NCBI GenBank assembly: GCA_000091165.1 | Contig: FP565575.1 | Span: 930,001-962,000, forward strand | Length of the DNA: 32,000 nt | Reading direction: 5' to 3' | Source of the DNA: Candidatus Methylomirabilis oxygeniifera | GTDB taxonomy: Bacteria > Methylomirabilota > Methylomirabilia > Methylomirabilales > Methylomirabilaceae | Part shown: positions 1 to 12,599 of the stretch, piece by piece | How the letters are laid out: each line of letters opens with the position of its first letter | Numbering within the stretch: the first letter of the stretch is position 1 | Program-made: the position numbers and the translations under genes | Notes under the pieces: generated by a model | What the model was told of the DNA's origin: nothing | The model's input: only the letters and a program-made list of their open reading frames with translations | The model's database searches: none

Positions 1-164
1 TTGTCTCCTTGTGTGATTGTGATAAAGCCGGTTAACGCGGACTTCCTCGTTGCGGTGTAAGACCGTGGGTGGTAACGCCGACTGAGTATTGACATGTGGC
101 GCCTGTCCTCCTGGTGCAGGATGTCGCAGATACTTGCACATGGTCCCAGCTCCTGTCGGTTGAT

Positions 165-524
165 TCAGGCCGACCGCTTCAGTGGCAGATCCGGCATCTG
201 TGAGAAGCTGCTTTCAAGGTCGTGGTACAGTGCATAAACCTGAAGGAAGGGATTCCAATCGAATTGCGCCCGAAGTTCATCTTGAAGAGCGTACAGCCTG
301 AGGGTACCATCCTGCGCCTTGACCTCCTGGCGGATAGCCCCTAGGACGCCCAGCTCCGGGATGCCGAGCTCGTCAAGCCCGGTCAGGTTGATGACGACTT
401 TCACACCGTGGCGCCGCAGCAACGGCAAGAGGACCCGGTGTAACCGTGCCTCCTCGTTGTCTGCCGCCTTCCCATCAAGCCTGATGATCAGACTCCCTTT
501 GTGCTCCTTGATCCGGTATCGCAT
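165..524 (-). CDS. STAS-domain protein (anti-sigma-antagonist fold), 119 aa
   Basis: ORF 165..638 trimmed to the ATG at 524 (MRYRIKEHKGSLIIRLDG...). GAGGAG lies 6 nt upstream, and the longer N-terminus would overlap the upstream 72-aa gene. VVINLTGLDELGIPELGVLG resembles the STAS core. Confidence 0.6.
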   Translation of the reverse strand: MRYRIKEHKGSLIIRLDGKAADNEEARLHRVLLPLLRRHGVKVVINLTGLDELGIPELGVLGAIRQEVKAQDGTLRLYALQDELRAQFDWNPFLQVYALYHDLESSFSQMPDLPLKRSA

Positions 525-546
525 ATGCCACTCCTCTTTGTTATGG

Positions 547-765
547 TTACGCCGCCAGTCGTTGCCCGCCCATTGGTCGAATACTGATACGCAGTGCCTG
601 CTCTTCCCTGTTGTACGAAATTCGTTCGATGGTTCCATCGATGGGGCTCAGTACAAATTGATCATCGAAATATGGAGAGAGGCCTAACAGGTAGCCCCTC
701 TTTACCTCGCTCTTTGCGACCAGTCGGTTGTAAGAACTCCCATCAACCTTCAACGTAATCAGCAT
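547..765 (-). CDS. Hypothetical 72-aa protein, first gene of the STAS operon
   Basis: Strong SD (AAAAAGGAGGATGAC then ATG at 765). It ends 22 nt before the STAS start. No family recognised. Confidence 0.5.
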   Translation of the reverse strand: MLITLKVDGSSYNRLVAKSEVKRGYLLGLSPYFDDQFVLSPIDGTIERISYNREEQALRISIRPMGGQRLAA

Positions 766-786
766 GTCATCCTCCTTTTTGATGGC

Positions 787-840
787 ATCCTAACCGTGGC
801 TTGTTACAACCATATGAAGGATCGATGACACGGAAGTAAA
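787..840 (-). promoter_or_regulatory. Phased direct-repeat promoter (Pho-box-like) of the 72-aa/STAS operon
   Basis: Read on the minus strand: TTTAC (840-836), GTCAT (829-825), TTCAT (818-814), GTAAC (807-803), exactly 11 bp apart. A 10-bp gap is followed by TAGGAT (792-787). Confidence 0.5.
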
Positions 841-1007
841 TTCGAGACCTCGGAGTAGCGATCTCAGTGAGAGCGGGAAGAGAAATAGTGTGAGAGCGGA
901 GCACACCGGGGCAAACCGCAGTATCAGGGGCAGCTATCCCGTGGTGCGGTCCGTTCCGGCTTCCACCGTCCTATACGATTTGCGGAAGAGTCTTAAATAG
1001 AAGAAAT

Positions 1008-1063
1008 GTTACACCACTGCAACATCGCAGTAATCCGGGTGTAATTGTGGCCTGTTTTACTTA
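1008..1063 (+). promoter_or_regulatory. Phased direct-repeat promoter (Pho-box-like) of the zinc-ribbon/HMA-like operon
   Basis: GTTAC 1008, GCAAC 1019, GTAAT 1030, GTAAT 1041 (11-bp phase). The -10-like hexamer is TTTACT/TACTTA at 1056-1063. Confidence 0.45.
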
Positions 1064-1067
1064 GGCC

Positions 1068-1364
1068 ATGAGAATCGCTTGTCCGGAAGAGGGGAGAGTA
1101 GAAACACGGGGCGGTGAAGTGATGTGCCCGTCATGCGGTTCAGAAGCCGTCAACAGGTACGGACGGGCATGGACCCAAAAGCAGCGGTTTCGATGCCTGA
1201 TATGCGGAAGACAGTTCACGCTTGGCAATCGAAACACCACACCTGCCAAGAGACCTTACTGCGGTAAGTGCGGTCGACCAATGCATATCTATAAACGGGA
1301 AGCGAATATTATCAGATTCAGGTGTTCCGGGTATCCGGACTGTCGGGGCTTTCACAAACAGTGA
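1068..1364 (+). CDS. Dual zinc-ribbon protein (IS1/IS1595-transposase-like CxxC..CxxC ribbon plus topoisomerase-type C4 ribbon)
   Basis: CPSCGSEAVNRYGRAWTQKQRFRCLICGRQF followed by CGKCGRPMHIYKREANIIRFRCSGYPDC. The real start may be the ATG at 1122 (MCPSCG), because the predicted -10 sits only about 5 nt before 1068. Confidence 0.6.
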   Translation: MRIACPEEGRVETRGGEVMCPSCGSEAVNRYGRAWTQKQRFRCLICGRQFTLGNRNTTPAKRPYCGKCGRPMHIYKREANIIRFRCSGYPDCRGFHKQ

Positions 1365-1379
1365 GCGAGGAGGTGTGAC

Positions 1380-1751
1380 GTGAGTCACTATATCCACGAT
1401 ATACCGGGAAGGCTCAGGGTGAGGACGCCCGTGATCCAGCGCAATCCCCATCTTGCCCAGGAAGTCTACGGGCTGTTGGCGGTGCTTCGCGGAATAGAGA
1501 GCGTGACAGTCAAGGTCGTGACCGGGAGTATCGTGATTCACTATGACCACAAGGTGATCCGGTCGCGAGAGATTATTGCCGCCCTCACCCACGCCGGTTA
1601 TTTTGATCCGAAGAAGGCGATCACCCACGATGACTACCTGCATGACGCATGCGTCAAGACCGGCAAGATCGTGTGGAAGGCCTTCTTTGGGGCTTTTGTA
1701 GATACGGCACTTGAAGGGTCCGCGCTGTCGTTCATCGCAATTCTGATATAG
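1380..1751 (+). CDS. CxxC-less HMA-like domain protein with hydrophobic C-terminus, 123 aa
   Basis: GTG start 6 nt after GAGGAGG (1367-1373). It shares H-x-GRLRVR ... TGSIVIHY with two other proteins in this window and has no metal-binding CxxC. The C-terminus WKAFFGAFVDTALEGSALSFIAILI is hydrophobic. Confidence 0.65.
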   Translation: MSHYIHDIPGRLRVRTPVIQRNPHLAQEVYGLLAVLRGIESVTVKVVTGSIVIHYDHKVIRSREIIAALTHAGYFDPKKAITHDDYLHDACVKTGKIVWKAFFGAFVDTALEGSALSFIAILI

Positions 1752-1800
1752 CAATTCCCCACATTGCCTTCTCCCGTTGCATCGCGCAGCGGTATTCCTA

Positions 1801-3000
1801 TCAGCCTTGCAGGGCACTGACCTTATCGGTGACCTCCCATGGAAGTCCGATGTCCATCCGTCCCACATGTCCATATGCAGCCAACTTCCTGTAAAACCCA
1901 CCTTTGATCAGGGATGGCAGATAGCGCAGGTTGAACTGCCTCATGATCCCAACGATCCGAAAATCGACATGGTTCTCAAGGAGCTGGGCGATCCGGGCGT
2001 CCGGCAGCTTGCCTGTGCCGAATGTCTCCACCTGCACGCTGACGGGTCGTGACAGGCCGATAGAGTAGCTTAACTGGACCTCACATTCCCGTGCTAGCCC
2101 GGCGGCAACCACGTTCTTGGCCGCATAGCGGGCGATGTACGCGCCGATACGGTCGATCCGCATGGGATCCTTCCCGCTCAGCGCCGCACCACTGTGTCGT
2201 GAATACTCCCCATAGGTGTCGATGGCATTCTTTCTGCCGGTCAGTCCGGAATGGATGGACGGTCCGCCGACGACAAACGGACCGTCCGGATTGACGAAGA
2301 TCCTGGTCTTGTCGTCCGGCTTGATCTCCGCTTCCTGTAGGATCGGGTGGATGACCATCTCTTTAAGATCCTGTTCCAGTCTTTTTAGATCGGGACCGCC
2401 GGCTGTCGAGGGTCTGCCCTGACTGGCAATCAGCGTGATGCTGTGTATCCTGTACGGCCTACGATCTCTGTACTCAACGCCGACCTGCGTCTTGCCGTCC
2501 GGAGCGAGATAGGGTAGGAGCTTTTGGAGCCTCACGGAGGTCAGCCGCCGGGCCAGCCGATGGGCCAGCCAGATGGGAAGCGGCATGAGGGCAGAGGTCT
2601 GATCGCATGCATAGCCGAAGACGGTCACCTGATTTCTTACCGGAATCCGCTCGATCTCTTCGTCTGACAGATACCGTTCGTCGAACGAGTCGGACTCCTC
2701 AGTGGGTAACTCCTTCAGACTGGTCAGAATGCTGCAGGTCTTGGCATTGAAGGAGTGGTCCGCGTACCCGACCTGGTTGATCACCTGTCTGGCGATGTTG
2801 GCGAAGTCGATAGAGACATTGGTAGAAAACCTGGCTGCAATAAATACAATGGCGGTTGAAACCGCGCATTCAGCGATCACCCGTGAACAGGGATCCCGTT
2901 GAAGGATATGATCCACGATGGCATCACTGATCTGATCGCACAGTTTATCGGGGTGTCCCTCTGTCACCGATTCGGAGGTAAACATAAAGTCAGCCTTCAT
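1801..3000 (-). CDS. metK: S-adenosylmethionine synthetase family protein, divergent paralog
   Basis: SESVTEGHPDKLCDQISDAIVD, PDGKTQV, GLTGRK..DTYG, SGKDP..DR..AY.ARY.AKN.VAAGLA. Trimmed to the ATG at 3000 (GAGGTG 6 nt upstream). Several invariant MAT motifs are altered (see findings). Confidence 0.85.
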   Translation of the reverse strand: MKADFMFTSESVTEGHPDKLCDQISDAIVDHILQRDPCSRVIAECAVSTAIVFIAARFSTNVSIDFANIARQVINQVGYADHSFNAKTCSILTSLKELPTEESDSFDERYLSDEEIERIPVRNQVTVFGYACDQTSALMPLPIWLAHRLARRLTSVRLQKLLPYLAPDGKTQVGVEYRDRRPYRIHSITLIASQGRPSTAGGPDLKRLEQDLKEMVIHPILQEAEIKPDDKTRIFVNPDGPFVVGGPSIHSGLTGRKNAIDTYGEYSRHSGAALSGKDPMRIDRIGAYIARYAAKNVVAAGLARECEVQLSYSIGLSRPVSVQVETFGTGKLPDARIAQLLENHVDFRIVGIMRQFNLRYLPSLIKGGFYRKLAAYGHVGRMDIGLPWEVTDKVSALQG

Positions 3001-3054
3001 GTGCGTCACCTCGTATGGCGAATGTACCGTCCCAAAAGTCTCTTTGCTTTGATT

Positions 3055-3119
3055 GTCATTCCGAGCTTGACCCGGAATCCAGGCCTTCTACTCTGGATTC
3101 CCGCTTTCGCGGGAATGAC
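3055..3119. repeat. Compound palindromic REP-like element (the 'IPAFAGMT / FPRKRES' type)
   Basis: Outer inverted repeat GTCATTCC (3055-3062) / GGAATGAC (3112-3119). Inner hairpin ATTCCCGC-TTTC-GCGGGAAT (3097-3116) and ATTCCG..CGGAAT (about 3058-3078). It yields the spurious peptide WIPAFAGMT in ORF 2899..3228. Confidence 0.6.
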
Positions 3120-6100
3120 GACCCCGGAAATGAATGTACAGAAGCATCGGATACACACACTATTGCCGGACCCGTTGTGGTGTGGTTGTTTGTCGTTGGG
3201 TGTATGCGAAGCTTGGTGGCCTCGTTGACCAGGAATGGGATCAGTGCGCCTCCTCCTACTACAAGCGCGTCTACCACCCCGAGAGGCGCAATACTCAGGA
3301 GACTGCGGAGTCCTGGAACTGTCAGTGTAGCGGCCTGAACGGCAAACGATCCGCCCAGTGCAAGCTGGAGGTATCGGTTGGGGGGGAGCGGAGTCCGGGC
3401 AGCCGGCGGATCATAGATCGTGTGTCTTTCTGAGCGGCAACTGAGGGCGTGCAGGAGCTGTCCCAGGACCAGGGTCACAAAGGCCATCGTGCCGGCCTGC
3501 GGCCCCATGCCGTATCTCAGGATACCATAGGTATAGGCCCCCATCGAACCCGCCGAGATCACGCCGGCCTCGTACGCGATCCTCTTCAGGTCGGCAGTGC
3601 TCAGGATCGGTTCGTGTGGATTTCGGGGTGGGCGACTCAACACATCAGGTTCGGGTGGCTCAAGGGCCAGCGCCAAGCCCGGGAAGATATCCGAGATCAG
3701 ATTGATCCACAAAAGCTGCATGGGGTTGAGCGGTTCACCCAGTCCCACCGTCATAGCGGCCGACATGACGAGCAGCTCGCTCGCGTTTGTGGCCAGGAGA
3801 AAATGGACCGCCTTTCTGATGTTGTTGTAGGTCGTCCTGCCATGGCTGATGGCCACGATCATCGTTTCAAGATCGTCGTTTTCCAGCACCACATCCGCCA
3901 CCTCCCTGGCGACATCCGTACCGGCGTGGCCCATCGCGATCCCGATATCTGCGGCCTTCAGAGCCGGTCCATCATTGATGCCGTCGCCGGTCATGGCCAC
4001 GACCCTGCCGGCTCGCTGAAGCGCCTGGACGATCTGCAGCTTATTGGCAGGGCTGACCCTCGAAAACACGTGGACCTTTTTTGAGAGCGCCTCCATGACC
4101 TGAGGATCCACGGTTGCCAAGTGGGTCGAGTCCAGGATTTCAAGCGACCCATTTCCGCCCAGATTCAACGACTTGCCGATGGCGTAGGCCGTAGGACTCT
4201 GATCTCCGGTGATCATGACGGTATCGATCCCAGCCTGGTGAAACCGGGGAATCAACTCCTTGACGCCGTTCCTGATCGGATCAGCCATGCCGACCAACCC
4301 GAGCCAGATCAATCCATGTCCGACATGACCCCCGTCCTCCGCATGATCCTGGTGGGCGTATGCGAGCCCCAGGACTCTAAGTGAATCACCGGCCATGCGT
4401 TCATTTTCGTTCTCAATCGTTGCGCGTATCTCCTCGGAGAGGGGAATCTGTTGACCGTCTTTCAGGTACCACTGACACATGTCCAGGACCTCTCGAGGAC
4501 TGCCCTTGACAGCCAACAGTCGTGACGGGGAATCCGACCGGTGCAGCGTCGTCATGTAGTTCCGATTTTCGGAGCGTTGGGTCATCTTGAGCAGCGGATA
4601 CCGCTCCCGGATTTTCAGGACATCGATCCCTGCGCTGACGGCCAGATGGACCAGGGCGTTCTCTGTGGGCGAGCCTGTCAGCACGCACTCCTCCCCGAGA
4701 TGACTCACGACGGTTTCGTTGCACAGCACCGAGGCATGAACCAATCTCAGGAGCTCGTCGCAGGTGAATGGGTTGATCGTGACCTCTCCTGAGACGAACC
4801 TCCCCTCTGTGATCGTGATAGTCTGCAGACTTGTGTGGATGGCCACCACCGACATCCGGTTCATGGTGATGGTTCCGGTCTTGTCCAGACAGATCGTCTG
4901 GACCGATCCGAGGGTCTCTACGGCATGAAGATATCGGATCAGGACATGATGTCGCCTCATGCTCCTGATTCCCAACGCCAGCGTCGTCGTGGCGACAGTG
5001 GACAGGCCTTCAGGGACGGCCGCCACTGCCAGTGAAATGGCGATCTTGAACATCCGGACAAAGCCGTATCCGCGGAGCAGGCCGATGACAAAGACCAGCA
5101 CGCAGGCCAAACCGCCAAGCCACACCGAGTGGTTGCCGATCTGTCTGAGCCGCCTTTCCATGGGGGTCTCGGGCGGTACCGCCTCGCCGGTCAGGATCTG
5201 AATCTGTCCCATCTCTGTCACGCCCCCGGTGGCGACCACCACAGCCAGCCCTTCGCCTCCCGTCACCAGGGTTCCCATATAGACCATGTTGATCCGATCG
5301 GCCAGCGGGACGGCGGCCGCAAGGATCGATTCCGCGGTCTTGAGCGCAGGCATATTCTCGCCGGTCAGCGCCGACTCATCCACATACAGATATCGGCTGT
5401 CCACGATCCTGGCATCCGCCGCAACGTAGCTTCCGGGTCTGAGTGCCAGGAGATCCCCAATGACGACCTCCTCTGCGCGAATGGTGAGGAGAGCGCCGTC
5501 CCGGATGACTGCCGCAGAAGGGGTCACCAGTTTCTTGAGGGAATGGAGCGTGTCCTCAGTTTGACTTTCGGTGACATACCCAATCGTGGCATTGATGCAT
5601 ACGACTCCAAGGATGACCAGCGCATCGGCAACCCCACCGGTCACAAACGAGAGCGCGGCGGCTGCCGCAAGGAGGGCGACAGGCAGCGAGGCAAACTGAT
5701 CGATCAGGATACCGAATCGTGATCGACGGAGCGCCTCAGGCAAGACATTCGGACCATATTGCGTGAGGCGTTCCCGCACTGATTCTTCAGATAGCCCTGA
5801 TCGTGTCGCACTCAGAATCGTAAGCGCCGAATCGATTTCGAGGGCGTGCCATGGGTGAACCGCCCGTCTTTCGACGGGAGACGTGGGAGAGGTGGCGGGT
5901 CTTGCCGTATGAGGGAGACGCTTACCGTTGAACGGCTGGTCGCTATACTCTGAAACGATACCCCTGATAAGGACGGTGACCGTCTTGGTGGTGTGGTCCG
6001 AATTGAAGACGATCAGGAGATTTCCGGTCAGGACGCTTGCCGAGGCATTCTTGATCCCCTTGACCTGATGGAGGCGGGACTCGAGGTATCCTTTGAGCAT

Positions 6101-6172
6101 CTGAGAGCGGTAGAGACCGCTGACTCGTAGCCTGATCCTCCCCTTCACCTGATTGTGTACGGCCTGAACCAC
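3056..6172 (-). CDS. P2-type (SERCA/PMCA-like) cation-transporting ATPase with N-terminal HMA-like domain, 1038 aa
   Basis: DKTGTIT (4865-4885), AVAAVPEGLSTVATTTLALG, MITGDQ, GDGINDGPALK, and a Cation_ATPase_N-like segment (WHALEIDSAL...GLSEESVRERLTQYGPN). N-terminal residues 1-75 carry GRIRLRV...LTGNLLIVF. GTG start 7 nt after GAGG. Confidence 0.9.
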   Translation of the reverse strand: MVQAVHNQVKGRIRLRVSGLYRSQMLKGYLESRLHQVKGIKNASASVLTGNLLIVFNSDHTTKTVTVLIRGIVSEYSDQPFNGKRLPHTARPATSPTSPVERRAVHPWHALEIDSALTILSATRSGLSEESVRERLTQYGPNVLPEALRRSRFGILIDQFASLPVALLAAAAALSFVTGGVADALVILGVVCINATIGYVTESQTEDTLHSLKKLVTPSAAVIRDGALLTIRAEEVVIGDLLALRPGSYVAADARIVDSRYLYVDESALTGENMPALKTAESILAAAVPLADRINMVYMGTLVTGGEGLAVVVATGGVTEMGQIQILTGEAVPPETPMERRLRQIGNHSVWLGGLACVLVFVIGLLRGYGFVRMFKIAISLAVAAVPEGLSTVATTTLALGIRSMRRHHVLIRYLHAVETLGSVQTICLDKTGTITMNRMSVVAIHTSLQTITITEGRFVSGEVTINPFTCDELLRLVHASVLCNETVVSHLGEECVLTGSPTENALVHLAVSAGIDVLKIRERYPLLKMTQRSENRNYMTTLHRSDSPSRLLAVKGSPREVLDMCQWYLKDGQQIPLSEEIRATIENENERMAGDSLRVLGLAYAHQDHAEDGGHVGHGLIWLGLVGMADPIRNGVKELIPRFHQAGIDTVMITGDQSPTAYAIGKSLNLGGNGSLEILDSTHLATVDPQVMEALSKKVHVFSRVSPANKLQIVQALQRAGRVVAMTGDGINDGPALKAADIGIAMGHAGTDVAREVADVVLENDDLETMIVAISHGRTTYNNIRKAVHFLLATNASELLVMSAAMTVGLGEPLNPMQLLWINLISDIFPGLALALEPPEPDVLSRPPRNPHEPILSTADLKRIAYEAGVISAGSMGAYTYGILRYGMGPQAGTMAFVTLVLGQLLHALSCRSERHTIYDPPAARTPLPPNRYLQLALGGSFAVQAATLTVPGLRSLLSIAPLGVVDALVVGGGALIPFLVNEATKLRIHPTTNNHTTTGPAIVCVSDASVHSFPGSSFPRKRESRVEGLDSGSSSE

Positions 6173-6189
6173 AAGGAGACCTCTAAAAG

Positions 6190-6236
6190 AAGCCGTCCTG
6201 ATCGAAGGCAGGGGCAGGTGTCAATCAGGACGGCTT
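6190..6236 (-). terminator. Intra-operon stem-loop (13-bp perfect stem) followed by CUUUU: attenuator or partial terminator
   Basis: AAGCCGTCCTGAT (6190-6202) pairs with ATCAGGACGGCTT (6224-6236), with a 21-nt loop. On the minus strand the stem is followed by CTTTTAGAGG, which also contains the ATPase SD. Confidence 0.45.
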
Positions 6237-6251
6237 TTGGTGGCGTGAGTA

Positions 6252-6953
6252 TTACTTGCTTCGTATGCGACCCTTGGGGACGGTCGATGATTCCAGAGGC
6301 TCGGCAGGTGCCGGTGACTTGGCTGGTGATGGTGGGGTCGGCACGCTCGCGCCGGATCTCGGGAGCGCTGCGCTTGCGACCTCCTTGACGCCCTCGACAA
6401 CGCCCAGCAGGATATCTTTCACAGTCCTGACGGCAGTCTGCCCGATGCTGCCCGCTGCCTCGATGGCTCCGGTTACGGCTACTCCGGCAGCCTTCTCCAC
6501 GTTGCCGCCTGTCTCTTTGACCGCATCAACCACGCCGTCTACAGCGCTTCTGGCCACGAGGCCGATGTCGGCCCCGATCTCGGCGGCGCCGGACACGGCG
6601 GCCTTTACGGTCTGACCGGCAACGCTCATCGCATCGCCTCCTACATCACCAACCCCCATGATGACCCCTTTGGCGACACTTCTGGTGCTCATGACCAGAC
6701 CTGTACCGACCTCCTCTGTGGCCTGGATCGCACCCTTGACGACATCACGTGTAAGGCCGATAGCCTCACCGGCCACTCCCCCCGTCGCCCTGAGGGTCTG
6801 AGAAACAGTATTTCGCACTAGACTGACGATTTCGGCTTCGATCTCATTAATCCCCTTCAGACTCGAGACGATCCCGTCCTTCACTGTTGTACCGGCTTTC
6901 CCGATCGGTTCAGATATACCTGATCCACCCTTTTCACCCTCTTCGATAACCAT
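6252..6953 (-). CDS. Gly/Ala/Val-rich protein built from 7-8 tandem ~22-residue repeats with a Pro-rich basic tail, 233 aa
   Basis: SD GAAGGAG upstream of the ATG at 6953. Repeats include LTRDVVKGAIQATEEVGTGLV, MSTRSVAKGVIMGVGDVGGDAM, SVAGQTVKAAVSGAAEIGADIG, LVARSAVDGVVDAVKETGGNVE and KAAGVAVTGAIEAAGSIGQTAV. Confidence 0.7.
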   Translation of the reverse strand: MVIEEGEKGGSGISEPIGKAGTTVKDGIVSSLKGINEIEAEIVSLVRNTVSQTLRATGGVAGEAIGLTRDVVKGAIQATEEVGTGLVMSTRSVAKGVIMGVGDVGGDAMSVAGQTVKAAVSGAAEIGADIGLVARSAVDGVVDAVKETGGNVEKAAGVAVTGAIEAAGSIGQTAVRTVKDILLGVVEGVKEVASAALPRSGASVPTPPSPAKSPAPAEPLESSTVPKGRIRSK

Positions 6954-6974
6954 CGCTAATCTCCTTCACGGTTG

Positions 6975-7481
6975 TTATTCGCCACCGGCCGCTGTGTCAC
7001 GTTGCCGTTCCTTCATGAGGCTGTGGGCATACCACAGCGCCGTTATGGCAGGCATCATGATATGGCCCCTCGTCAGTTGAATAATCGCGACGCCAACGAA
7101 TCCCAGTATGGCAAGCATCCTGAAATCGATGTCGCTACTCGCGCGGCCACCGACCTCTCCATTGACTTCTCGCGGGGATTGCTTGCGAATCACGGACGCA
7201 GACGTCTGGTTAGGAGGGGATACCTTCAGGCGAAACAGGTTATTGAATTCGCTGTACTGCGCAACCATCTCAAGGTCTGTAGCTTGCAGGTCCAAGGTAT
7301 GAAGGACAAGTATGCTCCCTGTCATGGGATTCGCCTCGATCCTCTGAATCCCTGGTAGTTCAGATAACCCCGCCAGCTTTTCCTTTAACGAAGCAAAATA
7401 GGTCGAATCGCCCTTCCTGTCAGGGATCTTGATCCTGACCCTTCCTTGAGTCGCATGAGTAATGTAGGCATCCGGAAGCAT
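6975..7481 (-). CDS. CxxC-less HMA-like domain protein with C-terminal TM segment, 168 aa
   Basis: ORF 6975..7631 trimmed to the ATG at 7481 (MLPDAYITHATQGRVRIKIP...), because the longer form overlaps the upstream gene out of frame. Motifs: GRVRIK ... MTGSILVLHT. TM-like FRMLAILGFVGVAIIQL. Confidence 0.7.
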   Translation of the reverse strand: MLPDAYITHATQGRVRIKIPDRKGDSTYFASLKEKLAGLSELPGIQRIEANPMTGSILVLHTLDLQATDLEMVAQYSEFNNLFRLKVSPPNQTSASVIRKQSPREVNGEVGGRASSDIDFRMLAILGFVGVAIIQLTRGHIMMPAITALWYAHSLMKERQRDTAAGGE

Positions 7482-7494
7482 CACGCCCCTACCT

Positions 7495-7785
7495 TTACGC
7501 TTCAGGTCGAGCGGGATCTGATACCACAGACCCGGTTTCTGTTGGAGCTTGAGCCAATTCCGCCTTCGCCTCCGCCGCCAGGTCCTCGATGACCTCTCCT
7601 GCCTCAGCAACCGCCTCCTGACCCTTTTCATAGAGCAAGATGCCGCCTTTAATTGTGGCCTTCAGCAGGGGCTTGACGATGGCCGCAGCCAGCGGGATCA
7701 CGACAGGGGCCAAAATAGACGCGCCGATACCAATGGCCAACCCTGTCACCACGTTTCCCTTCAGCCCATTATCTAACAATCCCAT
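7495..7785 (-). CDS. Small membrane protein, DUF5132-like, 96 aa
   Basis: SD AAAAGGAGGATCGTC then ATG at 7785. A hydrophobic hairpin (GLAIGIGASILAPVVIPLAAAIV) is followed by KGGILLYEKGQEAVAEAGEVIEDLAAEAKAEL. The DUF5132 assignment is from memory. Confidence 0.65.
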   Translation of the reverse strand: MGLLDNGLKGNVVTGLAIGIGASILAPVVIPLAAAIVKPLLKATIKGGILLYEKGQEAVAEAGEVIEDLAAEAKAELAQAPTETGSVVSDPARPEA

Positions 7786-7830
7786 GACGATCCTCCTTTT
7801 CCATGTGTTCGGCCATACAATCGTTAGATA

Positions 7831-7860
7831 ATGATAGGCTTCCAGGGGTGGCTATGTAAA
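7831..7860 (-). promoter_or_regulatory. Candidate sigma70-type promoter of the DUF5132-like/ATPase operon
   Basis: Minus strand: TTTACA (7860-7855), 18 nt, TATCAT (7836-7831), about 45 nt upstream of the ATG at 7785. It has no phased repeat array. Confidence 0.3.
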
Positions 7861-7880
7861 CATGCTCGTTCATTACTTAC

Positions 7881-9419
7881 CTATTCCTCGTCCTCGTCTT
7901 CGTCCTCATCGTCCGGAGAACCGATGCTCGGGTCCACGTACATGGCGAGCAACTGTCCGCCCTGTACCAGCGCCGGATCGGAGTGAGCGAAATGGGCCTG
8001 GGCATCGAGCAGAAACCATCCATTCCCGAGGATCTGGTGTGCATCGATGATCCCGGAGGATTCTTCATCGGTCGTGAGGGCGGGCGGGGCCGGCGGCGCA
8101 AAGAAGGCAGGGTCGTGTGCCGCGACCTCGATCAGTTGGCCACTGTTGGTGCTATACAACCAGATCTTTCCGAGCGGATCCTGCCTGCCGATATCCTCTT
8201 GCATCAGAAGGCGGCCGCGCCGGTCCATGGTGATATTATCGAGCATCTTGTGACCCTCGCTGCCGCTCAACAGAATCTCGATGGTTCCGCCGTGTTCCGG
8301 GTGTTCGATATCATTGAAGCGCAGTCTCCACAGTCGGCTGTTTGTCGAGAAGCTCGCAGTCGTCACAAAGTAGAAATCGTTCTCGTGGCCTGGTCGGGGG
8401 TCCCACACCCCGTCCTCGAGCCGCTGCATCCGGAAGACGTCGGCGGCGATAGCGGCGTCCTGAAGCTGTGTCTCGGTCAACCCGGAAACATCTCCGAAGC
8501 TGTGGAGGCTGAAGGTGCCTGACCCGACATAGTTGCCTCCGCTCCCGAGTCCGTCGGTGTTGCTTTCCTCGGTGACTGTGGTCCCGTTGACCGCCACCTT
8601 CATGCCGAACAGGCCGCCGTTCGTGAGCCCCGCGCGTTCCACAGGAGTACCGTGATTCGTCTTCATGCCGATATAGACATACAGCTCGCTTGGAACATTG
8701 GGCGGAATCGGGCTTGTGCTGGCATCGGCATCGTCCAGCCCGATGACGACGGTCTTTGACTGCCGATGCGGACTGGCGACCACGTTTTCGAACGCCATGC
8801 GTCCGAGACGCGGCAACTGCCAGGACTGACCCTTATGGGGCCCGGTGGCGATATGAGCCCACGCCGTTCCGTTGTTCGTCTCCTCGCCGTTGAGATAGAG
8901 GCGATCCCGTGTACCCTTCCCTCGGGCGAAGAACGCCTTCTGAGGCGCTAAGTCCGCCGAGCAGAAGCGATTCCAGGCGACCGTCCCTTGCGCGTATCGG
9001 CTGCTCACCGGATCCCAGGAGTAGACGTCGCTTGATGACGGTGTTTGATCCTCGCCCTTCAAGACCTCTAGTGTTTTCCGCTTGATCTCCCAGCGGGATA
9101 CGAACGCGCCCGGCGACCCATGGGCACGGACGACGCCCGCTGTTGCGCCCAGTTCGTGGTTCACCAATAGCGTGAATGTCCGGTGACCGCTCTTGAAGGC
9201 ACCCAGTCCATCCGGGATGCCTACCAGGGAATACCCGCCAATGGTGTCGCCGACGGTCAGCACCGAGATCGTCTCGACCCCAGGCATTGAGGGAAGGACA
9301 TACGGGGCTGTGGTTGTGCTCGGTCCGATGCTTTGCGCTGAAGCGACGCAGGCAGTCGTTGCCACGCATCCGAGAACCAACGCGGCTCGAGCAAGCTCTT
9401 TTCCAACCCTGTTCGACAT
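7881..9419 (-). CDS. Secreted PhoX-like (DUF839 beta-propeller) phosphatase, 512 aa
   Basis: Trimmed to the ATG at 9419 (AGGAGG upstream). Signal peptide MSNRVGKELARAALVLGCVATTACVASAQS. GIPDGLGAF, LLVNHEL, FCSA, NGEE and LPRLGRMAFEN resemble the PhoX/DUF839 family. The C-terminal tail is acidic (DDEDEDEDEE). Confidence 0.6.
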   Translation of the reverse strand: MSNRVGKELARAALVLGCVATTACVASAQSIGPSTTTAPYVLPSMPGVETISVLTVGDTIGGYSLVGIPDGLGAFKSGHRTFTLLVNHELGATAGVVRAHGSPGAFVSRWEIKRKTLEVLKGEDQTPSSSDVYSWDPVSSRYAQGTVAWNRFCSADLAPQKAFFARGKGTRDRLYLNGEETNNGTAWAHIATGPHKGQSWQLPRLGRMAFENVVASPHRQSKTVVIGLDDADASTSPIPPNVPSELYVYIGMKTNHGTPVERAGLTNGGLFGMKVAVNGTTVTEESNTDGLGSGGNYVGSGTFSLHSFGDVSGLTETQLQDAAIAADVFRMQRLEDGVWDPRPGHENDFYFVTTASFSTNSRLWRLRFNDIEHPEHGGTIEILLSGSEGHKMLDNITMDRRGRLLMQEDIGRQDPLGKIWLYSTNSGQLIEVAAHDPAFFAPPAPPALTTDEESSGIIDAHQILGNGWFLLDAQAHFAHSDPALVQGGQLLAMYVDPSIGSPDDEDEDEDEE

Positions 9420-9498
9420 GTGATCATACCTCCTATTGAGAAGTTGATGTCCACACCCCGATGACAACATGTAACACACATGCTGCGGAGTATGGCGT

Positions 9499-9541
9499 AT
9501 CCTAACCCCCCCTTATGTCCGTGTGATGACATGGGAGTAAA
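9499..9541 (-). promoter_or_regulatory. Phased direct-repeat promoter (Pho-box-like) of the PhoX-like gene
   Basis: Minus strand: TTTAC (9541-9537), GTCAT (9530-9526), GACAT (9519-9515), a 10-bp gap, then TAGGAT (9504-9499). Confidence 0.55.
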
Positions 9542-9586
9542 AAGCGTGTTACAAGTTCCAGCCCGACAGACGTGTGTCGGTAGGAA

Positions 9587-9640
9587 TTTACACCGGAGAA
9601 ACCCGGTCGTAACAGACGCGTCACAACAACACCCTACTGT
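9587..9640 (+). promoter_or_regulatory. Phased direct-repeat promoter (Pho-box-like) of the GAF hybrid kinase gene
   Basis: TTTAC 9587, GAAAC 9598, GTAAC 9609, GTCAC 9620, a 10-bp gap, then TACTGT (9635-9640). Confidence 0.5.
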
Positions 9641-9693
9641 TTGAGCAAAGAAGGTATCTGCAGACCGTTATTCAACCGAACCGAGGTGTCACG

Positions 9694-11526
9694 ATGAAAC
9701 ACGTTCAGTCTCTCGAACTACTTCATGCAAGCCTCCATATACGCGAACCCCTGGAGCTTCGTGAACGTCTGGATCGGATCATGCGGACCGCGCGGGATAT
9801 TTTAGGGCTACGACGCCTGACCCTGTTCCTCGCCGATCCTGAAGGGTTGTGTCTGCGTACAGTAGCCAGTACGGCCTTGAGCCCGGGATCACGGCCGATT
9901 CCGCTGACCGACTCGGAGAATCCCGTCGTACGGGCCTATAGTGCTCATGCGCCGGTGTTCTGGAATCCACAGATGCCGACTACCCGGGCGATTCGACTGC
10001 AGCCGCCTTATGATCACCCTGTCGGGCTACCCTCCGACGGGTTCCTCAACCTCCCACTCATTGTGCAGGGACGAGTGATCGGCGTTCTGGGTGTTGAGCA
10101 TCCGGAGGGGGGCTGGATCCTGGACCGTGAGACGATCCAACTGATGGAGTTGTTTGCCGCTCAGGCGGCGACGGCTATCGAACACGCCCGTCTCTATGAG
10201 GAGGCAAGACGGATAGCAGCAGAACTGCAACAAAAGGTCGAAGCCCTTGCGCAGGCCGACGCAGCGCTCGTGGAGTCGGTACGGCTCCGCGCCATGGGCC
10301 AGATGGCCTCCGGCGTGGCGCATGATTTTAATAATATTCTGAACTCGATCCTGGGGCAGGTGCAGCTCCTGCAGACGCGTTTCGCGCAGGGATCTGTCCA
10401 TGCGGCAACAATCAAGGAGACGCTGCGGCTGCTGGAAGCGGCGGCCCTCGATGGGGCTGAGATTGTCCGCAAACTCCGTGAATTCACACGACCTGCTGAG
10501 GAGGAGGCGTTTGTGCCGATGGCCCTCGATAAGGTGATCGAGCAAGTGCTGGACACGACCAGGCCTCGTTGGAAGGACCAGGCTGAGGCCAGCGGTCGTC
10601 GCTTTCGGATTGTGACTGAGTGTGCATCTGTTCCCCCTATTCTCGGAAATGCCTCGGAACTCCGGGCGGTCGTCACCAACCTGTTGTTCAATGCCTTGGA
10701 TGCGATGCCGCAGGGGGGAACTGTAACCATTACGCTACGACATGTTCAGAGGGGTGGGGAGACCGCTCAACGAGCGGAAGGATTGATCGTGAATGGCGAG
10801 TGGGGTGAGAAGAGACGTCGATCTGAACGTGGAGGAGTCGTCCTGTTTACGATGACGGATACTGGAGTGGGAATTCCTGACAGTGTCAAAGCGCGTATCT
10901 TTGACCCATTCTTTACGACGAAGGGTACACGGGGGACCGGACTTGGTCTCAGCATGGTTCACGGAATCGTTCGCCGCCACCGTGGTGAGATTCTGGTAGC
11001 CAGCGAGGAGAGGCGTGGCACAACTATCACGATCTCCCTGCCGATTGCTGTAGACATTCCAACGGTTGTCATGTCCGAGGCGACTGCGCTGCCGAGCGTA
11101 CCATACTGCGCACGGATTTTAGTCATCGATGATGATCCGCTTGGTGTGGACGTCCTGATGGCTTTCTTGCAGACGCTTGGCCATGAGGCCGTAGTGGCGA
11201 CGGGAGGACCGGAGGGTCTTCGACTGTTGGAGACGAACAAGTTCGATCTACTTCTGACCGATCTGGGTATGCCGGAGATGTCGGGGTGGGATGTGGCCCA
11301 GGCGGCCAAGACCCGTCTCCCCAGCCTCCCCGTTGTCCTCGTCACCGGATGGGGGGATCATATCGATCCGTCGAGACTCGCGGGGACCGGAGTTGACGTG
11401 GTGCTGACCAAGCCGTACACGCTCTCGGACCTTGGTACCGGATTGAGCAAGGCCTGGGGCGCGTCCACAGTAGAGCCGAGACGGGGTTACAACGTAGCGA
11501 GATGTAACGAAACGTGTGAGGTGTGA
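9694..11526 (+). CDS. GAF-domain hybrid sensor histidine kinase with C-terminal receiver, 610 aa
   Basis: H-box GVAHDFNNILNSILG. The HATPase_c N/G boxes are present (NLLFNALDAM, DTGVGI, GTGLGLSMV). Receiver: ILVIDDD...LLLTDLGMPEMSG...TKP. Confidence 0.9.
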   Translation: MKHVQSLELLHASLHIREPLELRERLDRIMRTARDILGLRRLTLFLADPEGLCLRTVASTALSPGSRPIPLTDSENPVVRAYSAHAPVFWNPQMPTTRAIRLQPPYDHPVGLPSDGFLNLPLIVQGRVIGVLGVEHPEGGWILDRETIQLMELFAAQAATAIEHARLYEEARRIAAELQQKVEALAQADAALVESVRLRAMGQMASGVAHDFNNILNSILGQVQLLQTRFAQGSVHAATIKETLRLLEAAALDGAEIVRKLREFTRPAEEEAFVPMALDKVIEQVLDTTRPRWKDQAEASGRRFRIVTECASVPPILGNASELRAVVTNLLFNALDAMPQGGTVTITLRHVQRGGETAQRAEGLIVNGEWGEKRRRSERGGVVLFTMTDTGVGIPDSVKARIFDPFFTTKGTRGTGLGLSMVHGIVRRHRGEILVASEERRGTTITISLPIAVDIPTVVMSEATALPSVPYCARILVIDDDPLGVDVLMAFLQTLGHEAVVATGGPEGLRLLETNKFDLLLTDLGMPEMSGWDVAQAAKTRLPSLPVVLVTGWGDHIDPSRLAGTGVDVVLTKPYTLSDLGTGLSKAWGASTVEPRRGYNVARCNETCEV

Positions 11527-11578
11527 CACCGTAGAGCGGAAAACAGCGCGCCCTTGGACCGTCATACTGGAGGCGCGC

Positions 11579-11617
11579 CCCTTGTGCCCAGTACAAACGG
11601 GTTGCAAGGGTATTTTG
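11579..11617 (+). terminator. Probable rho-independent terminator of the kinase gene
   Basis: CCCTTG (11579-11584) pairs with CAAGGG (11605-11610), plus inner GCCC/GGGT pairing. TATTTTGTG follows. Confidence 0.45.
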
Positions 11618-11642
11618 TGAGACATCACACGAGCAGCCCCCT

Positions 11643-12599
11643 CTAGGCGATTTGCGCTGCCAATCCGACCTCCAGCCCGTTTCCCGATGTCGGCCGGAAG
11701 TCAGGGCGGGTAAGATCCATCTCGACCTGCGCGGGATTGCCCCAATCGCTCCAGTAGACGTCTTTTACCCGTTTTACCGCGAGGCGAGGAGGATGCTGAG
11801 CCAAAATCGCTCGCGAGAAATCCACCGGCGGCAGCTTGGCGTAGACGCTTTCGACGGCCTCAGCTTCTCTCGGAGACCCGATGAGGGGCTCTAAGCCATC
11901 AAAGAGATTGAAGAGTCCCGGCGTCAGCGTCTTGAAAAGGCTGATCAACCACCAGGCTCGTCCGATTGCAACCATCGTGTTCCACAAGCAATCGTATCGG
12001 CGGTAGAGGATCTGGGCCGTGCGGCGGTCGGGCTTCTCCCAAAATCGTCGTACGTGATGGACCTCCGCATGGTCATGGTATCCGGAAATACCATCTGTCT
12101 CAATCCAGCCATACTCGGGTTCCGGTCGCTTCGGTTCGACCCCTAAGAGGACGAGACAACCGGGGGCTGTAGCGACAAAGGCGGCAACCTCCTCGACATG
12201 CGACATGAACCGCTCCTCCTCAGCGATGAAGTGGTCGGCCGGCAGTAAGACCACGACAGCCTTCGGATCTTGCCGGTAGACATGCAACAGCGGCAGCAGG
12301 ATGCCCGGCCCCGTCTCCCGGTTGCTAGGCTGGACGATAACGGCGCCCGGAGGGCGGTCATGGAGCTCTTCGCGAGCATAATCAAGGTGCGGGCGGGTCA
12401 CGACGGTCAGGAGACGCTCAGGCGGGATGAGCCGCTCGGCACGATACAGCGTGTGCCGGAGCATTGAACGGCTGCCGAAAAGTGTACAGTACTGCTTTGG
12501 CCGATCAGAACCGAAACGCGACCGGATGAAGGGCCGAAGCCTCTTGCCCTCGCCGCCTGCCAGGATAATGCCCCAAAGATGATCGGTTATTCCAGACAT
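11643..12599 (-). CDS. Sugar-phosphate nucleotidyltransferase, mannose-1-phosphate guanylyltransferase-like, 318 aa
   Basis: ILAGGEGKRLRPF...RPKQY, PEPEYGWIE, FWEKPD, LWNTM and SDWGNP match the ManC/NTP_transferase pattern. An SD-like AGGAGGAGAGG precedes the ATG at 12599. Confidence 0.8.
   Translation of the reverse strand: MSGITDHLWGIILAGGEGKRLRPFIRSRFGSDRPKQYCTLFGSRSMLRHTLYRAERLIPPERLLTVVTRPHLDYAREELHDRPPGAVIVQPSNRETGPGILLPLLHVYRQDPKAVVVLLPADHFIAEEERFMSHVEEVAAFVATAPGCLVLLGVEPKRPEPEYGWIETDGISGYHDHAEVHHVRRFWEKPDRRTAQILYRRYDCLWNTMVAIGRAWWLISLFKTLTPGLFNLFDGLEPLIGSPREAEAVESVYAKLPPVDFSRAILAQHPPRLAVKRVKDVYWSDWGNPAQVEMDLTRPDFRPTSGNGLEVGLAAQIA

Follow-up and report, generated by a model that had tools for sequence, protein, structure and literature searches.

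Ferrosomes are membrane invaginations that form under iron limitation and are filled with iron phosphate by the ATPase FezB; FezA and FezB alone yield ferrosomes in Escherichia coli. According to the ferrosome preprint, a fez cluster encodes FezB, a P1B-6 ATPase with an N-terminal R-rich motif (RxRxR), FezC, which combines an HMA domain, an R-rich motif and two transmembrane (TM) segments, small GxxxG proteins and small soluble R-rich proteins. In the tables of the preprint, the FezB motifs read HDIPGRMRLRFA in D. magneticus and HRLPGRIRLRYQ in R. palustris, the soluble R-rich proteins (105–117 a.a.) share HH[VIL]PGRIRL, and FezC proteins are 146–182 a.a. long (e.g. DMR_28340, 146 a.a., with IEGRIRFRHP). 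A second described system is the neighbourhood of ccyA, a marker of intracellular amorphous calcium carbonate (iACC): in Microcystis aeruginosa PCC 7806, genes for DUF5132, CoBaHMA-DUF454, CoBaHMA and DUF5132 proteins are co-expressed with ccyA and with the Ca2+/H+ exchanger gene cax. Here we describe a five-gene operon of Candidatus Methylomirabilis oxyfera (NC10), which lies in a stretch of 32,000 nt (GCA_000091165.1, contig FP565575.1, positions 930,001–962,000; hereafter the window, with positions counted from its first letter). By analogy, we tentatively read it as a fez-like compartment system in which a SERCA-like Ca2+ pump has replaced the iron pump, a reading that we regard as close to evenly balanced though not quite probable.

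The five genes form one minus-strand operon encoding, in order, a DUF5132 protein, a CoBaHMA protein with a C-terminal hydrophobic region (CoBaHMA-TM), a helical-repeat protein (REP), a P2A-type ATPase with a fused CoBaHMA domain and an enzyme of the MAT fold (MetK-like); the operon has its own promoter and a conserved upstream operator (Table 1). A preliminary description of this DNA had reported four packed minus-strand genes with a MetK paralog just downstream on the same strand, and all of its open reading frames (ORFs) are present at the positions it gave. Gaps between the operon genes are 13, 21, 79 and 46–55 nt, and a search for a terminator inside the operon found none. Public records identical to window proteins are CBE68169 (ATPase), CBE68172 (DUF5132), CBE68171 (CoBaHMA-TM), CBE68167 (the 123-a.a. 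CoBaHMA protein) and KAB2959886 (the zinc-ribbon protein).

We scanned an alignment of REP against one genome per GTDB species, which gave 235 relatives, and analysed the best 80 loci; the ORFs of all 80 were clustered, and the counts below use the 68 non-redundant loci that have both REP and the ATPase. The best 80 of the 235 loci come from Nitrospirota-type genomes (62), Thermodesulfobacteriota/'delta' (13), 'Pseudomonadota' metagenome-assembled genomes (two), Binatia (one), Deferrimicrobium (one) and one unclassified genome. All five genes are found in 54 of the 68 loci, in constant order (DUF5132 > CoBaHMA-TM > REP > ATPase > MetK-like); these five-gene loci span NC10, Nitrospirota, Thermodesulfobacteriota, Binatia and Deferrimicrobium, mostly Nitrospirota and Thermodesulfobacteriota, with Binatia and Deferrimicrobium contributing one locus each, and many of the loci that lack the full set end at contig edges. 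The N-terminal CoBaHMA signature is kept in 53 of 56 full-length ATPase orthologues. Chance adjacency can be ruled out because the gene order and this signature are so widely shared, and the co-occurrence of four families proposed in the preliminary description is borne out, with the MetK-like gene as a fifth member. The limits drawn there were too narrow: the promoter element at 7869–7883 belongs to the module too, as does, in most genomes, a pair of genes for a zinc-ribbon and a 123-a.a. CoBaHMA protein (1068–1751 in the window; 41 of the 68 module loci). CoBaHMA genes number about two per locus on average.

Variants of the module were also seen. At 15 loci REP occurs without the ATPase, often with a DUF3562 gene. 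Nitrosovibrio sp. Nv6 (GCA_900110495.1; L005/L006, 6853–8950), a betaproteobacterial ammonia oxidiser, has a reduced module of DUF5132 (154 a.a.), a 94-a.a. CoBaHMA-like protein, REP (203 a.a.) and DUF3562, without a P-type ATPase and with a Na/Ca-exchanger gene 6 kb away. In some Nitrospirota loci (L023, L050, L056 and L067), the ATPase ORF cluster has a second, shorter P-type member (736–905 a.a.) 3–6 kb downstream of the module, with another CoBaHMA gene after it, which suggests a duplication of the pump and CoBaHMA unit.

The SERCA-like core recognised in the preliminary description places the ATPase in class P2A: it carries PEGL387, DKTGT430 and GDGIND729, matches the Pfam families Cation_ATPase_N, E1-E2_ATPase and Cation_ATPase_C, and has Listeria LMCA1 and human SPCA1 as its nearest solved structures (E ∼1e-142). 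In an alignment with SERCA1 (3tlm), five of seven Ca2+ ligands are identical (E309, N768, E771, N796 and D800). It shares this core and these Ca-site residues with the P2A Ca2+-ATPases (SERCA, SPCA1/PMR1 and LMCA1), and differs from them in the substitutions T799S and E908Q, in TGEN instead of TGES, and in ∼105 extra N-terminal residues that hold the CoBaHMA domain; the HMA-like module of ∼75 residues that had been noticed at this end is the HMA_2 match at residues 4–65. The top NCBIfam models are the PMR1-type TIGR01522 (616 bits against a cutoff of 798) and the SERCA-type TIGR01116 (519 against 703). As both scores fall below the equivalog cutoffs, the ATPase constitutes a distinct subfamily and its ion specificity has to be inferred; its sequence strongly suggests that it transports Ca2+, possibly with Mn2+.

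CoBaHMA (Conserved Basic residues HMA) was defined on calcyanins and equated with Pfam HMA_2 (PF19991; Benzerara 2022), and anionic partners such as lipids have been proposed in the literature as its ligands. All three HMA-like copies in the window, including the paralog at 1380–1751, match HMA_2 (46.0, 33.1 and 49.3 bits; cutoff 30), and none has a CxxC. Classical HMA (PF00403) is matched only by the 123-a.a. copy, and below threshold (22.3 against 24.8 bits), with the metal-binding CxxC absent. In the 168-a.a. CoBaHMA-TM protein, which is Cys-free and has its hydropathy maximum at residues 118–136, the HMA_2 match spans model positions 10–153 of 154. The family signature is found in all four CoBaHMA size classes, and the window copies have the His of beta0 together with the basic residues of beta1. 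Going by sequence, the HMA-like modules with an Arg-rich strand and no CxxC are members of the published CoBaHMA family (signature H-x-x-PGRxRxR), and this described family accounts for both expectations that the preliminary description took to be broken here (an HMA domain without CxxC, and an HMA domain on a non-P1B ATPase). At the domain level the window copies do not differ from the family; what is new is the conserved operon context. Gaschignard 2024 is reportedly the CoBaHMA family paper.

The DUF5132 protein, the other family that had been put forward for a Pfam test and that, like HMA_2, matches by profile search, has a single hydrophobic segment at about residues 12–36 with a GxxxG at 15–19. 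Its orthologues are 57–97% identical, with G15, G19, G21, P27 and P31 invariant, and a homologue search gave close orthologues only. The stretch G15-x3-G19-x-G21 sits in the sole hydrophobic helix, and AlphaFold predicts one long helix (residues 3–83, pLDDT ∼70). In our reading of this model, a single GxxxG transmembrane helix leads into a basic stretch and then an acidic amphipathic one; the acidic amphipathic tail described earlier is retained in this reading, and the membrane hairpin is replaced by the single segment.

The likeness to ferrosomes, which had been called loose, is closer than stated, as the signature H-x-x-PGRxRxR is found on FezB, FezC and the small soluble Fez proteins as well. 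The R-rich motifs of the window read HDIPGRLRVR (123 a.a.), HNQVKGRIRLR (ATPase) and HATQGRVRIK (168 a.a.), and the sizes of the proteins match those of their Fez counterparts, the 168-a.a. CoBaHMA-TM protein resembling FezC in layout as well and the 123-a.a. protein corresponding to the small R-rich Fez proteins. A genuine fez cluster is found on an Arcobacter plasmid (FezB with DYSCA and HNGTT; DUF2202 and DUF4405-like genes): its 104-a.a. R-rich protein passes the HMA_2 threshold (31.3 bits, cutoff 30), and its FezB N-terminus aligns to the same model positions (E 0.004), which places the Fez R-rich module within the HMA_2/CoBaHMA family. The two systems share a P-type ATPase with this module at its N-terminus, a protein of ∼150–180 a.a. 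that joins the module to TM helices, and proteins of ∼90–120 a.a. that consist of the module alone. They are also alike in architecture, though not in detectable homology, in having one or more small proteins whose hydrophobic GxxxG helix precedes a charged one. Homeostasis genes for the stored element (in the case of our operon, the element proposed to be stored) adjoin both clusters. Unlike fez, the present module has REP, the MAT-like enzyme and the zinc-ribbon protein in addition, lacks DUF2202 and DUF4405, and has phosphate and divalent-cation genes as neighbours rather than Feo/Fur; an organelle is known for fez, whereas here there are genes only.

The ccyA neighbourhood likewise has DUF5132 and CoBaHMA-TM genes beside genes for a Gly-rich helical-repeat protein and a Ca2+ transporter. 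Its transporter, however, is a CAX antiporter and not a P-type ATPase, it has no MAT-like gene, and the context here is phosphate, not carbonate. The preliminary description could name no characterised system with this composition; we found no description of the operon itself, but a close parallel had already been published for Microcystis ccyA.

Related gene sets were found on other replicons. A Nostoc plasmid encodes DUF5132, HMA_2 and a P1B-like pump with two HMA_2 domains; a Microvirga replicon has two DUF5132 genes, a CoBaHMA-fused P2 pump and a CoBaHMA-TM protein, with REP and MetK absent; and in Deinococcus a 107-a.a. GxxxG protein with a marginal DUF5132 match (hhalign 48%) precedes a P1B-like ATPase with two HMA_2 domains. 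At a Sinorhizobium DUF5132 locus there is no pump nearby. From the Nostoc and Microvirga sets, the core consists of a DUF5132-like protein, a CoBaHMA-TM protein and a CoBaHMA-fused pump, REP and the MAT-like enzyme being lineage additions. The DUF5132 and CoBaHMA pair is thus found with three unrelated transporter classes: P2A ATPases (the window and Microvirga), P1B-like ATPases (Nostoc and Deinococcus) and CAX (Microcystis). Because the pair accompanies such different transporters, a compartment or targeting role fits it better than that of a pump-specific regulator. The ATPases of Nostoc flagelliforme pNFSY04 (L090:11831–14479) and Deinococcus peraridilitoris pDEIPE01 (L093:6010–8514) are annotated as 'heavy metal translocating'; both have two tandem N-terminal HMA_2/CoBaHMA domains, lack CPC and are preceded by a DUF5132 or DUF5132-like GxxxG protein. 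The TM4 region of the Nostoc ATPase reads DIGTGIR, and both ATPases fall into the DxGTGIR group that the supplementary table on ferrosomes lists next to FezB.

The tandem 22-residue repeats of REP seen in the preliminary description are evident from autocorrelation maxima at lags of 22, 44 and 66. With the repeats in register, position 3 is acidic in eight out of nine, positions 5 and 18 are mostly Gly, and positions 13 and 17 are mostly basic. An AlphaFold model based on a 20-sequence alignment has eight helices, one per repeat (pLDDT 77.8, pTM 0.69), and a Foldseek search against the PDB returned only de novo designed helical-repeat proteins. No Pfam or NCBIfam family matches REP, tblastn against plasmids gave nothing, and a profile search of 1.84 billion cluster representatives gave 726 relatives. 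It has no signal peptide or TM segment, and in some Syntrophobacteraceae it is fused to a Ros/MucR domain, both of which suggest that it is cytoplasmic; on the predicted structure, REP is a cytosolic alpha-solenoid of eight helical repeats that represents a new family. In these Syntrophobacteraceae (P0002, P0003, P0007, P0008 and P0010; L007:8001–9077, L008 and L087) the Ros/MucR zinc-finger DNA-binding domain is C-terminal, a DUF5132 gene follows and the pump is absent. REP was also considered as a calcyanin and rejected on the features described for the calcyanin GlyZip. Calcyanin has a C-terminal (GlyZip)3 of three ∼50-a.a. motifs, each with ∼12 G-x3-G units and a central Gly-Pro, largely apolar (PMC8890360); compared with this published description, REP has no GP dipeptide, six GxxxG pairs, a longest small-x3 run of five (against ∼12) and a 22-residue period, and is polar with a pI of 5.2.

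The last gene of the operon encodes a protein that does match the MetK model TIGR01034 (380.8 bits, cutoff 309.4), in agreement with the divergent MetK paralog of the preliminary description, which overlooked its non-canonical methionine pocket. Compared with MetK proteins in the PDB and E. coli MetK, the signature GAGDQG has become PVRNQV in the window protein (in the family, I-P-v-[KRQ]-[ND]-Q-[VA]-T with a five-residue insertion) and GGGAFSGKD has become SGAALSGKD (in the family, SG[AS]ALSGKD); in addition, GGEIT is replaced by AARF (E55R), GDxGLTGRK by vHSGLTGRK (D238H), and D118 by N. These pocket changes are conserved in 55 orthologues. Together with the fold and length of S-adenosylmethionine (SAM) synthetase (MetK/MAT), the triphosphate- and metal-binding residues are retained, i.e. 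GHPDK (H14/D16), E42, K165, R244/K245, K265 and D271. In MAT2A, Glu70 and Asp258 (E55 and D238 in E. coli) hold the methionine amino group, and an Asp258 mutant lost SAM synthesis and kept tripolyphosphatase activity (PMC6850014). Given the replaced methionine-binding residues, the retained triphosphate site and this precedent, the protein is probably a MAT-fold enzyme that has been neofunctionalised, with triphosphate binding retained and SAM synthesis lost. Both PROSITE MAT signatures are lost or degenerate throughout the subfamily (the window and ORFs of L004 and L009–L088), which TIGR01034 still calls MetK.

Table 1. Positions of the operon, its promoter region and adjoining features in the window
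Feature	Position	Strand	Basis or remark
-35/-10 promoter of the operon, sigma-70-like, TTTACA-18-TATCAT	7831..7860	-	10/12 positions
Conserved cis-element TAGGTAAGTAATGAA	7869..7883	-	Directly 5' of the -35 box
DUF5132 protein, 96 a.a.	7495..7785	-	Pfam PF17195, E 9e-16, 58.1 bits against a cutoff of 25
CoBaHMA (HMA_2) protein with C-terminal hydrophobic region, 168 a.a.	6975..7481	-	Pfam PF19991, E 7e-12
REP, 233 a.a.; eight predicted 22-residue helical repeats, Pro-rich basic tail	6252..6953	-	No Pfam/NCBIfam family
P2A-type (SERCA/SPCA/LMCA1-like) putative Ca2+ ATPase, 1038 a.a.	3056..6172	-	Structure matches, motifs, Ca-site residues
ATPase N-terminal CoBaHMA domain, residues 4–65, HNQVKGRIRLR	5978..6163	-	Pfam HMA_2, E 6e-8
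MAT-fold (MetK-like) enzyme, last operon gene	3009/3000..1801	-	TIGR01034 above cutoff
Small CoBaHMA protein, 123 a.a., HDIPGRLRVR, hydrophobic C-terminus	1380..1751	+	Pfam HMA_2, E 7e-13
Double zinc-ribbon protein, 98 a.a., co-transcribed with the 123-a.a. CoBaHMA protein, candidate regulator	1068..1364	+	Zn-ribbon domain matches only
PhoX-like secreted protein, directly 5' of the operon, same strand	7881..9419/9479	-	Weak Pfam PhoX match
Pho-box-like 11-bp-period arrays 5' of the PhoX-like gene	9448..9476, 9514..9553	-	7-mer repeats

The operon is located in phosphate-limitation gene islands, a strong context that the preliminary description, sound on the genes themselves, had overlooked. 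In 38 of the 68 loci, at least one phosphate-limitation-type gene (pstSCAB-phoU, OlsB/A-like, GT21 or MGS) lies within 10 kb. The conserved neighbours are pstS-pstC-pstA-pstB-phoU (23–25 loci), OlsB-like and OlsA-like acyltransferases, a GT21 glycosyltransferase and methylglyoxal synthase (MGS), and further CorA, CDF and a low-molecular-weight phosphatase. The M. oxyfera operon itself has the PhoX-like gene immediately upstream and a porin O/P gene and the pst genes further downstream.

Pho-box-like arrays (7-mers with an 11-bp period, e.g. TGTAACAtaacCGTAACAtagaTGTAACG) precede pstS, the PhoX-like gene and a 72-a.a./STAS unit in this genome. Those 5' of the PhoX-like gene (TGTAACA/TTTTACT/TGTCATC and TGTTACA/TGTCATC/TGTGGAC) are similar to the pstS array of the same genome. 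Besides these two, arrays are found at 802–830 of the window (minus strand) and at L001:18494–18535, with 7-mers of the form [TC]GTAAC[AG] or TGTCATC, and the unit with the 72-a.a. and STAS genes includes the porin gene. Similar arrays also precede many of the zinc-ribbon and short CoBaHMA genes: the pstS-promoter words ATTTAAC, GTAACAA and TGTAACA are enriched 5' of zinc-ribbon genes, and paired half-sites occur in 15 out of 44 zinc-ribbon upstream regions against 37 out of 2000 random chunks. At the head of the pstSCAB-phoU operon, divergent from the module, ∼25 Nitrospirota species have genes for a short CoBaHMA protein (84–100 a.a.) and for a 4-Cys protein of 60–77 a.a. with the pattern C-x9-12-C-x17-20-C-x6-7-CP[FI][YF] (loci L009–L012, L016–L018, L022, L024–L026, L029–L032, L035, L037, L049, L055, L061 and L086), an arrangement that connects CoBaHMA proteins with phosphate uptake; related small 4-Cys proteins (F7 and F9) adjoin the zinc-ribbon gene. 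A cascade from Pho to the zinc-ribbon/CoBaHMA pair and from there to the operon is possible.

The operon has a conserved site of its own, in short form TAGGYAAGTAATGAAAG, just 5' of its -35 box in most loci. The family consensus, gTAGG[CT]AAGTAATGAAAga-N4-aT[ag]GAca, precedes the DUF5132 gene in most loci and across phyla, and the window copy is exact. The motif logo draws on 51 instances; the motif begins at a median of 87 nt ahead of the start codon. When up to two mismatches are allowed, 73 matches are found in 1.34 Mb, of which 56 are before DUF5132 genes and five before stand-alone REP paralogues; the motif also precedes CDF, MntP-like and DUF2934/GalT-like genes. TTTACA-18-TATCAT (7860–7831) is the best promoter-like match in positions 1–10000 of the window, and in other loci a -10-like hexamer is most frequent 46–47 nt after the motif start. 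As it lies 5' of the -35 box, the motif acts at the DNA level; judging from its position against this box, it is probably an activator site, and the genes that bear it look like a small regulon including divalent-cation exporters, with the conserved zinc-ribbon protein as a candidate for the regulator. In its cross-phylum form TAGG[CT]AAGTAATGAAAG, the motif marks the operon, stand-alone REP paralogues, CDF and MntP-like exporters and a DUF2934 and GalT/HIT-like pair, with extra sites outside the operon at L013:17999, L020:18710, L040:19694, L053:15894, L034:8845 and L055:17398. We rejected the motif as a Pho box, since its sequence and spacing are unlike the TGTAACA arrays, and also a SAM riboswitch or other leader RNA upstream of the operon, as Rfam at E<=1 gave no riboswitch or leader RNA over positions 1–12000.

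We favour a compartment because of the ferrosome analogy and because the accessory pair occurs with three unrelated transporter classes. In such a system, the small GxxxG membrane protein and the CoBaHMA proteins would help to form or mark an invaginated lipid-bounded vesicle, as in ferrosomes, and the pump would load it with Ca2+ from the cytoplasm, a direction topologically equivalent to export into the periplasm. The anion deposited with it would most plausibly be phosphate or polyphosphate (cf. the iron phosphate of the ferrosome), else carbonate, giving a Ca-rich store. The basic face of CoBaHMA would bind an anionic partner (lipid or polyphosphate), REP would act as a cytosolic scaffold, and the MAT-like enzyme would handle a triphosphate-bearing or anionic substrate rather than synthesize SAM. 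In its fullest form, the proposal is of a ferrosome-like lipid-bounded organelle that stores Ca with phosphate or polyphosphate and is made in the phosphate-limitation response as ferrosomes are under iron limitation, with CoBaHMA as an organelle-building or anion-sensing module shared by ferrosomes, cyanobacterial iACC and the window system, REP as a new scaffold family, and the MAT-fold enzyme as the catalyst of a new reaction, other than SAM synthesis, whose substrate is a triphosphate or anionic compound; this we consider possible, somewhat short of an even case. Several points weigh against a compartment. The ATPase is of P2A Ca-type and not P1B-6, without DYSCA or HNxxT; the GxxxG protein here is DUF5132, to which the Fez GxxxG proteins show no homology by Pfam and only 3% probability by hhalign, so that the parallel is architectural only; and fez clusters contain nothing equivalent to REP or the MAT-like enzyme. 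Since CoBaHMA is also found in many other architectures, it need not imply an organelle. As the motif at the operon promoter differs from a Pho box, only the neighbourhood suggests that phosphate limitation induces the operon. To our knowledge, the bacterial P2A Ca-ATPases studied so far are plasma-membrane exporters, and Ca-rich granules have not been reported in M. oxyfera. Finally, we infer compartment, localisation and transport alike from a cluster known from its genes.

In the chief alternative, the operon would encode a pump for the efflux of Ca2+ (or Ca2+ and Mn2+) across the plasma membrane, with dedicated regulatory subunits, that serves the cell during phosphate scarcity: DUF5132 and CoBaHMA-TM would play the part that small single-pass regulators have in other P2 ATPases, the CoBaHMA domain at the N-terminus would regulate its own pump, and, as polyphosphate and anionic phospholipids are consumed or replaced and cation buffers are lost, the freed divalent cations would be extruded. 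The P2A identity with intact Ca sites suits this explanation, as do the tight, probably translational, coupling of the small membrane proteins to the pump, the anionic-lipid binding proposed for CoBaHMA in the literature, and neighbours such as Pst/PhoU, ornithine-lipid and glycolipid synthases, MGS, CorA and CDF; the operon motif before CDF and MntP-like efflux genes also suggests a divalent-cation efflux regulon. However, efflux leaves unexplained why the DUF5132 and CoBaHMA pair accompanies CAX antiporters and P1B-like ATPases and why the set resembles the organelle-forming fez set, it gives REP and the MAT-like enzyme no role, and the regulatory interaction is a proposal only; we regard it as a real possibility, though rather doubtful. 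Its direction of transport is that of the compartment system, and vesicle formation is the sole difference. A non-cyanobacterial counterpart of the ccyA neighbourhood, i.e. an iACC system with REP as calcyanin, appears improbable. The Microcystis order DUF5132/CoBaHMA-DUF454/CoBaHMA/DUF5132/ccyA/cax does mirror DUF5132/CoBaHMA-TM/REP/CoBaHMA-Ca-ATPase, and iACC is known in some Nitrospirota, while studies of intracellular carbonate formers report no genetic determinant known outside cyanobacteria; but REP fails the described calcyanin features, a bicarbonate transporter and carbonic anhydrase were not found among the conserved neighbours, where phosphate genes are found instead, and the module occurs commonly in lineages from which calcification is not known. 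The TIGR01034 score above cutoff and the lipid-remodelling genes nearby would accord with a SAM-supply operon, in which a genuine MetK feeds a methylation or aminocarboxypropyl step (e.g. for betaine or methylated ornithine lipids in phosphate limitation); this is very unlikely, as both residues for the methionine amino group are replaced, by conserved replacements (E55R and D238H), and GAGDQG is gone in all 55 orthologues. Least credible of all is an ordinary heavy-metal (Cu/Zn/Cd) resistance operon with HMA metallochaperones and a metal-exporting ATPase, to which only the database labels of relatives ('copper chaperone CopZ' or 'heavy metal') and weak, sub-threshold matches of the 123-a.a. 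protein to classical HMA and CopZ point. The three HMA-like copies have neither CxxC nor any metal-binding Cys, and CPC, CxxC, DYSCA and HNxxT are all absent from the ATPase, a P2A pump with Cation_ATPase_N and Cation_ATPase_C; with Cys ligands absent and a P2A core, identity as a heavy-metal pump was rejected.

If the ferrosome-like organelle is real, it answers an open question, namely whether ferrosome-like structures exist for metals besides iron. For this question and for that of carbonate determinants the operon is a concrete candidate, being a compact five-gene unit with a putative calcium pump, and the CoBaHMA module is common to the operon, fez clusters and the ccyA neighbourhood. Many uncultured Nitrospirota and Desulfobacterota carry the operon, as does a well-studied enrichment organism, the methane oxidiser M. 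oxyfera. The CoBaHMA family, the P2A pump class and the fez paradigm are already known; the conserved operon context is new. In the literature on DUF5132, PF19991, DUF3562, HMA2 domain-containing proteins and M. oxyfera phosphate/polyphosphate, we found no description of the operon, its motif, REP or the altered MetK. The present comparison also links the ferrosome 'R-rich motif' to the CoBaHMA/HMA_2 family, and we found no paper stating this equivalence, in a search that, like the preceding one, did not include Gaschignard 2024, which may already note the fez link or P2-ATPase fusions. In addition, a new helical-repeat family (as modelled) and a cross-phylum promoter element have been defined, and the subfamily annotated as MetK, whose members probably do not synthesize SAM, is of relevance to automated annotation.

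Two neighbours of the operon deserve mention for their annotation. The PhoX-like protein has only a faint PhoX match and ends in a poly-acidic tail (SPDDEDEDEDEE), and the stop codon of its gene overlaps the start of the operator motif. The 98-a.a. zinc-ribbon protein, which may be a regulator, is publicly labelled 'Insertion element protein / IS1 family transposase'; a transposase domain is absent from it, and the IS1 label is probably a misannotation.

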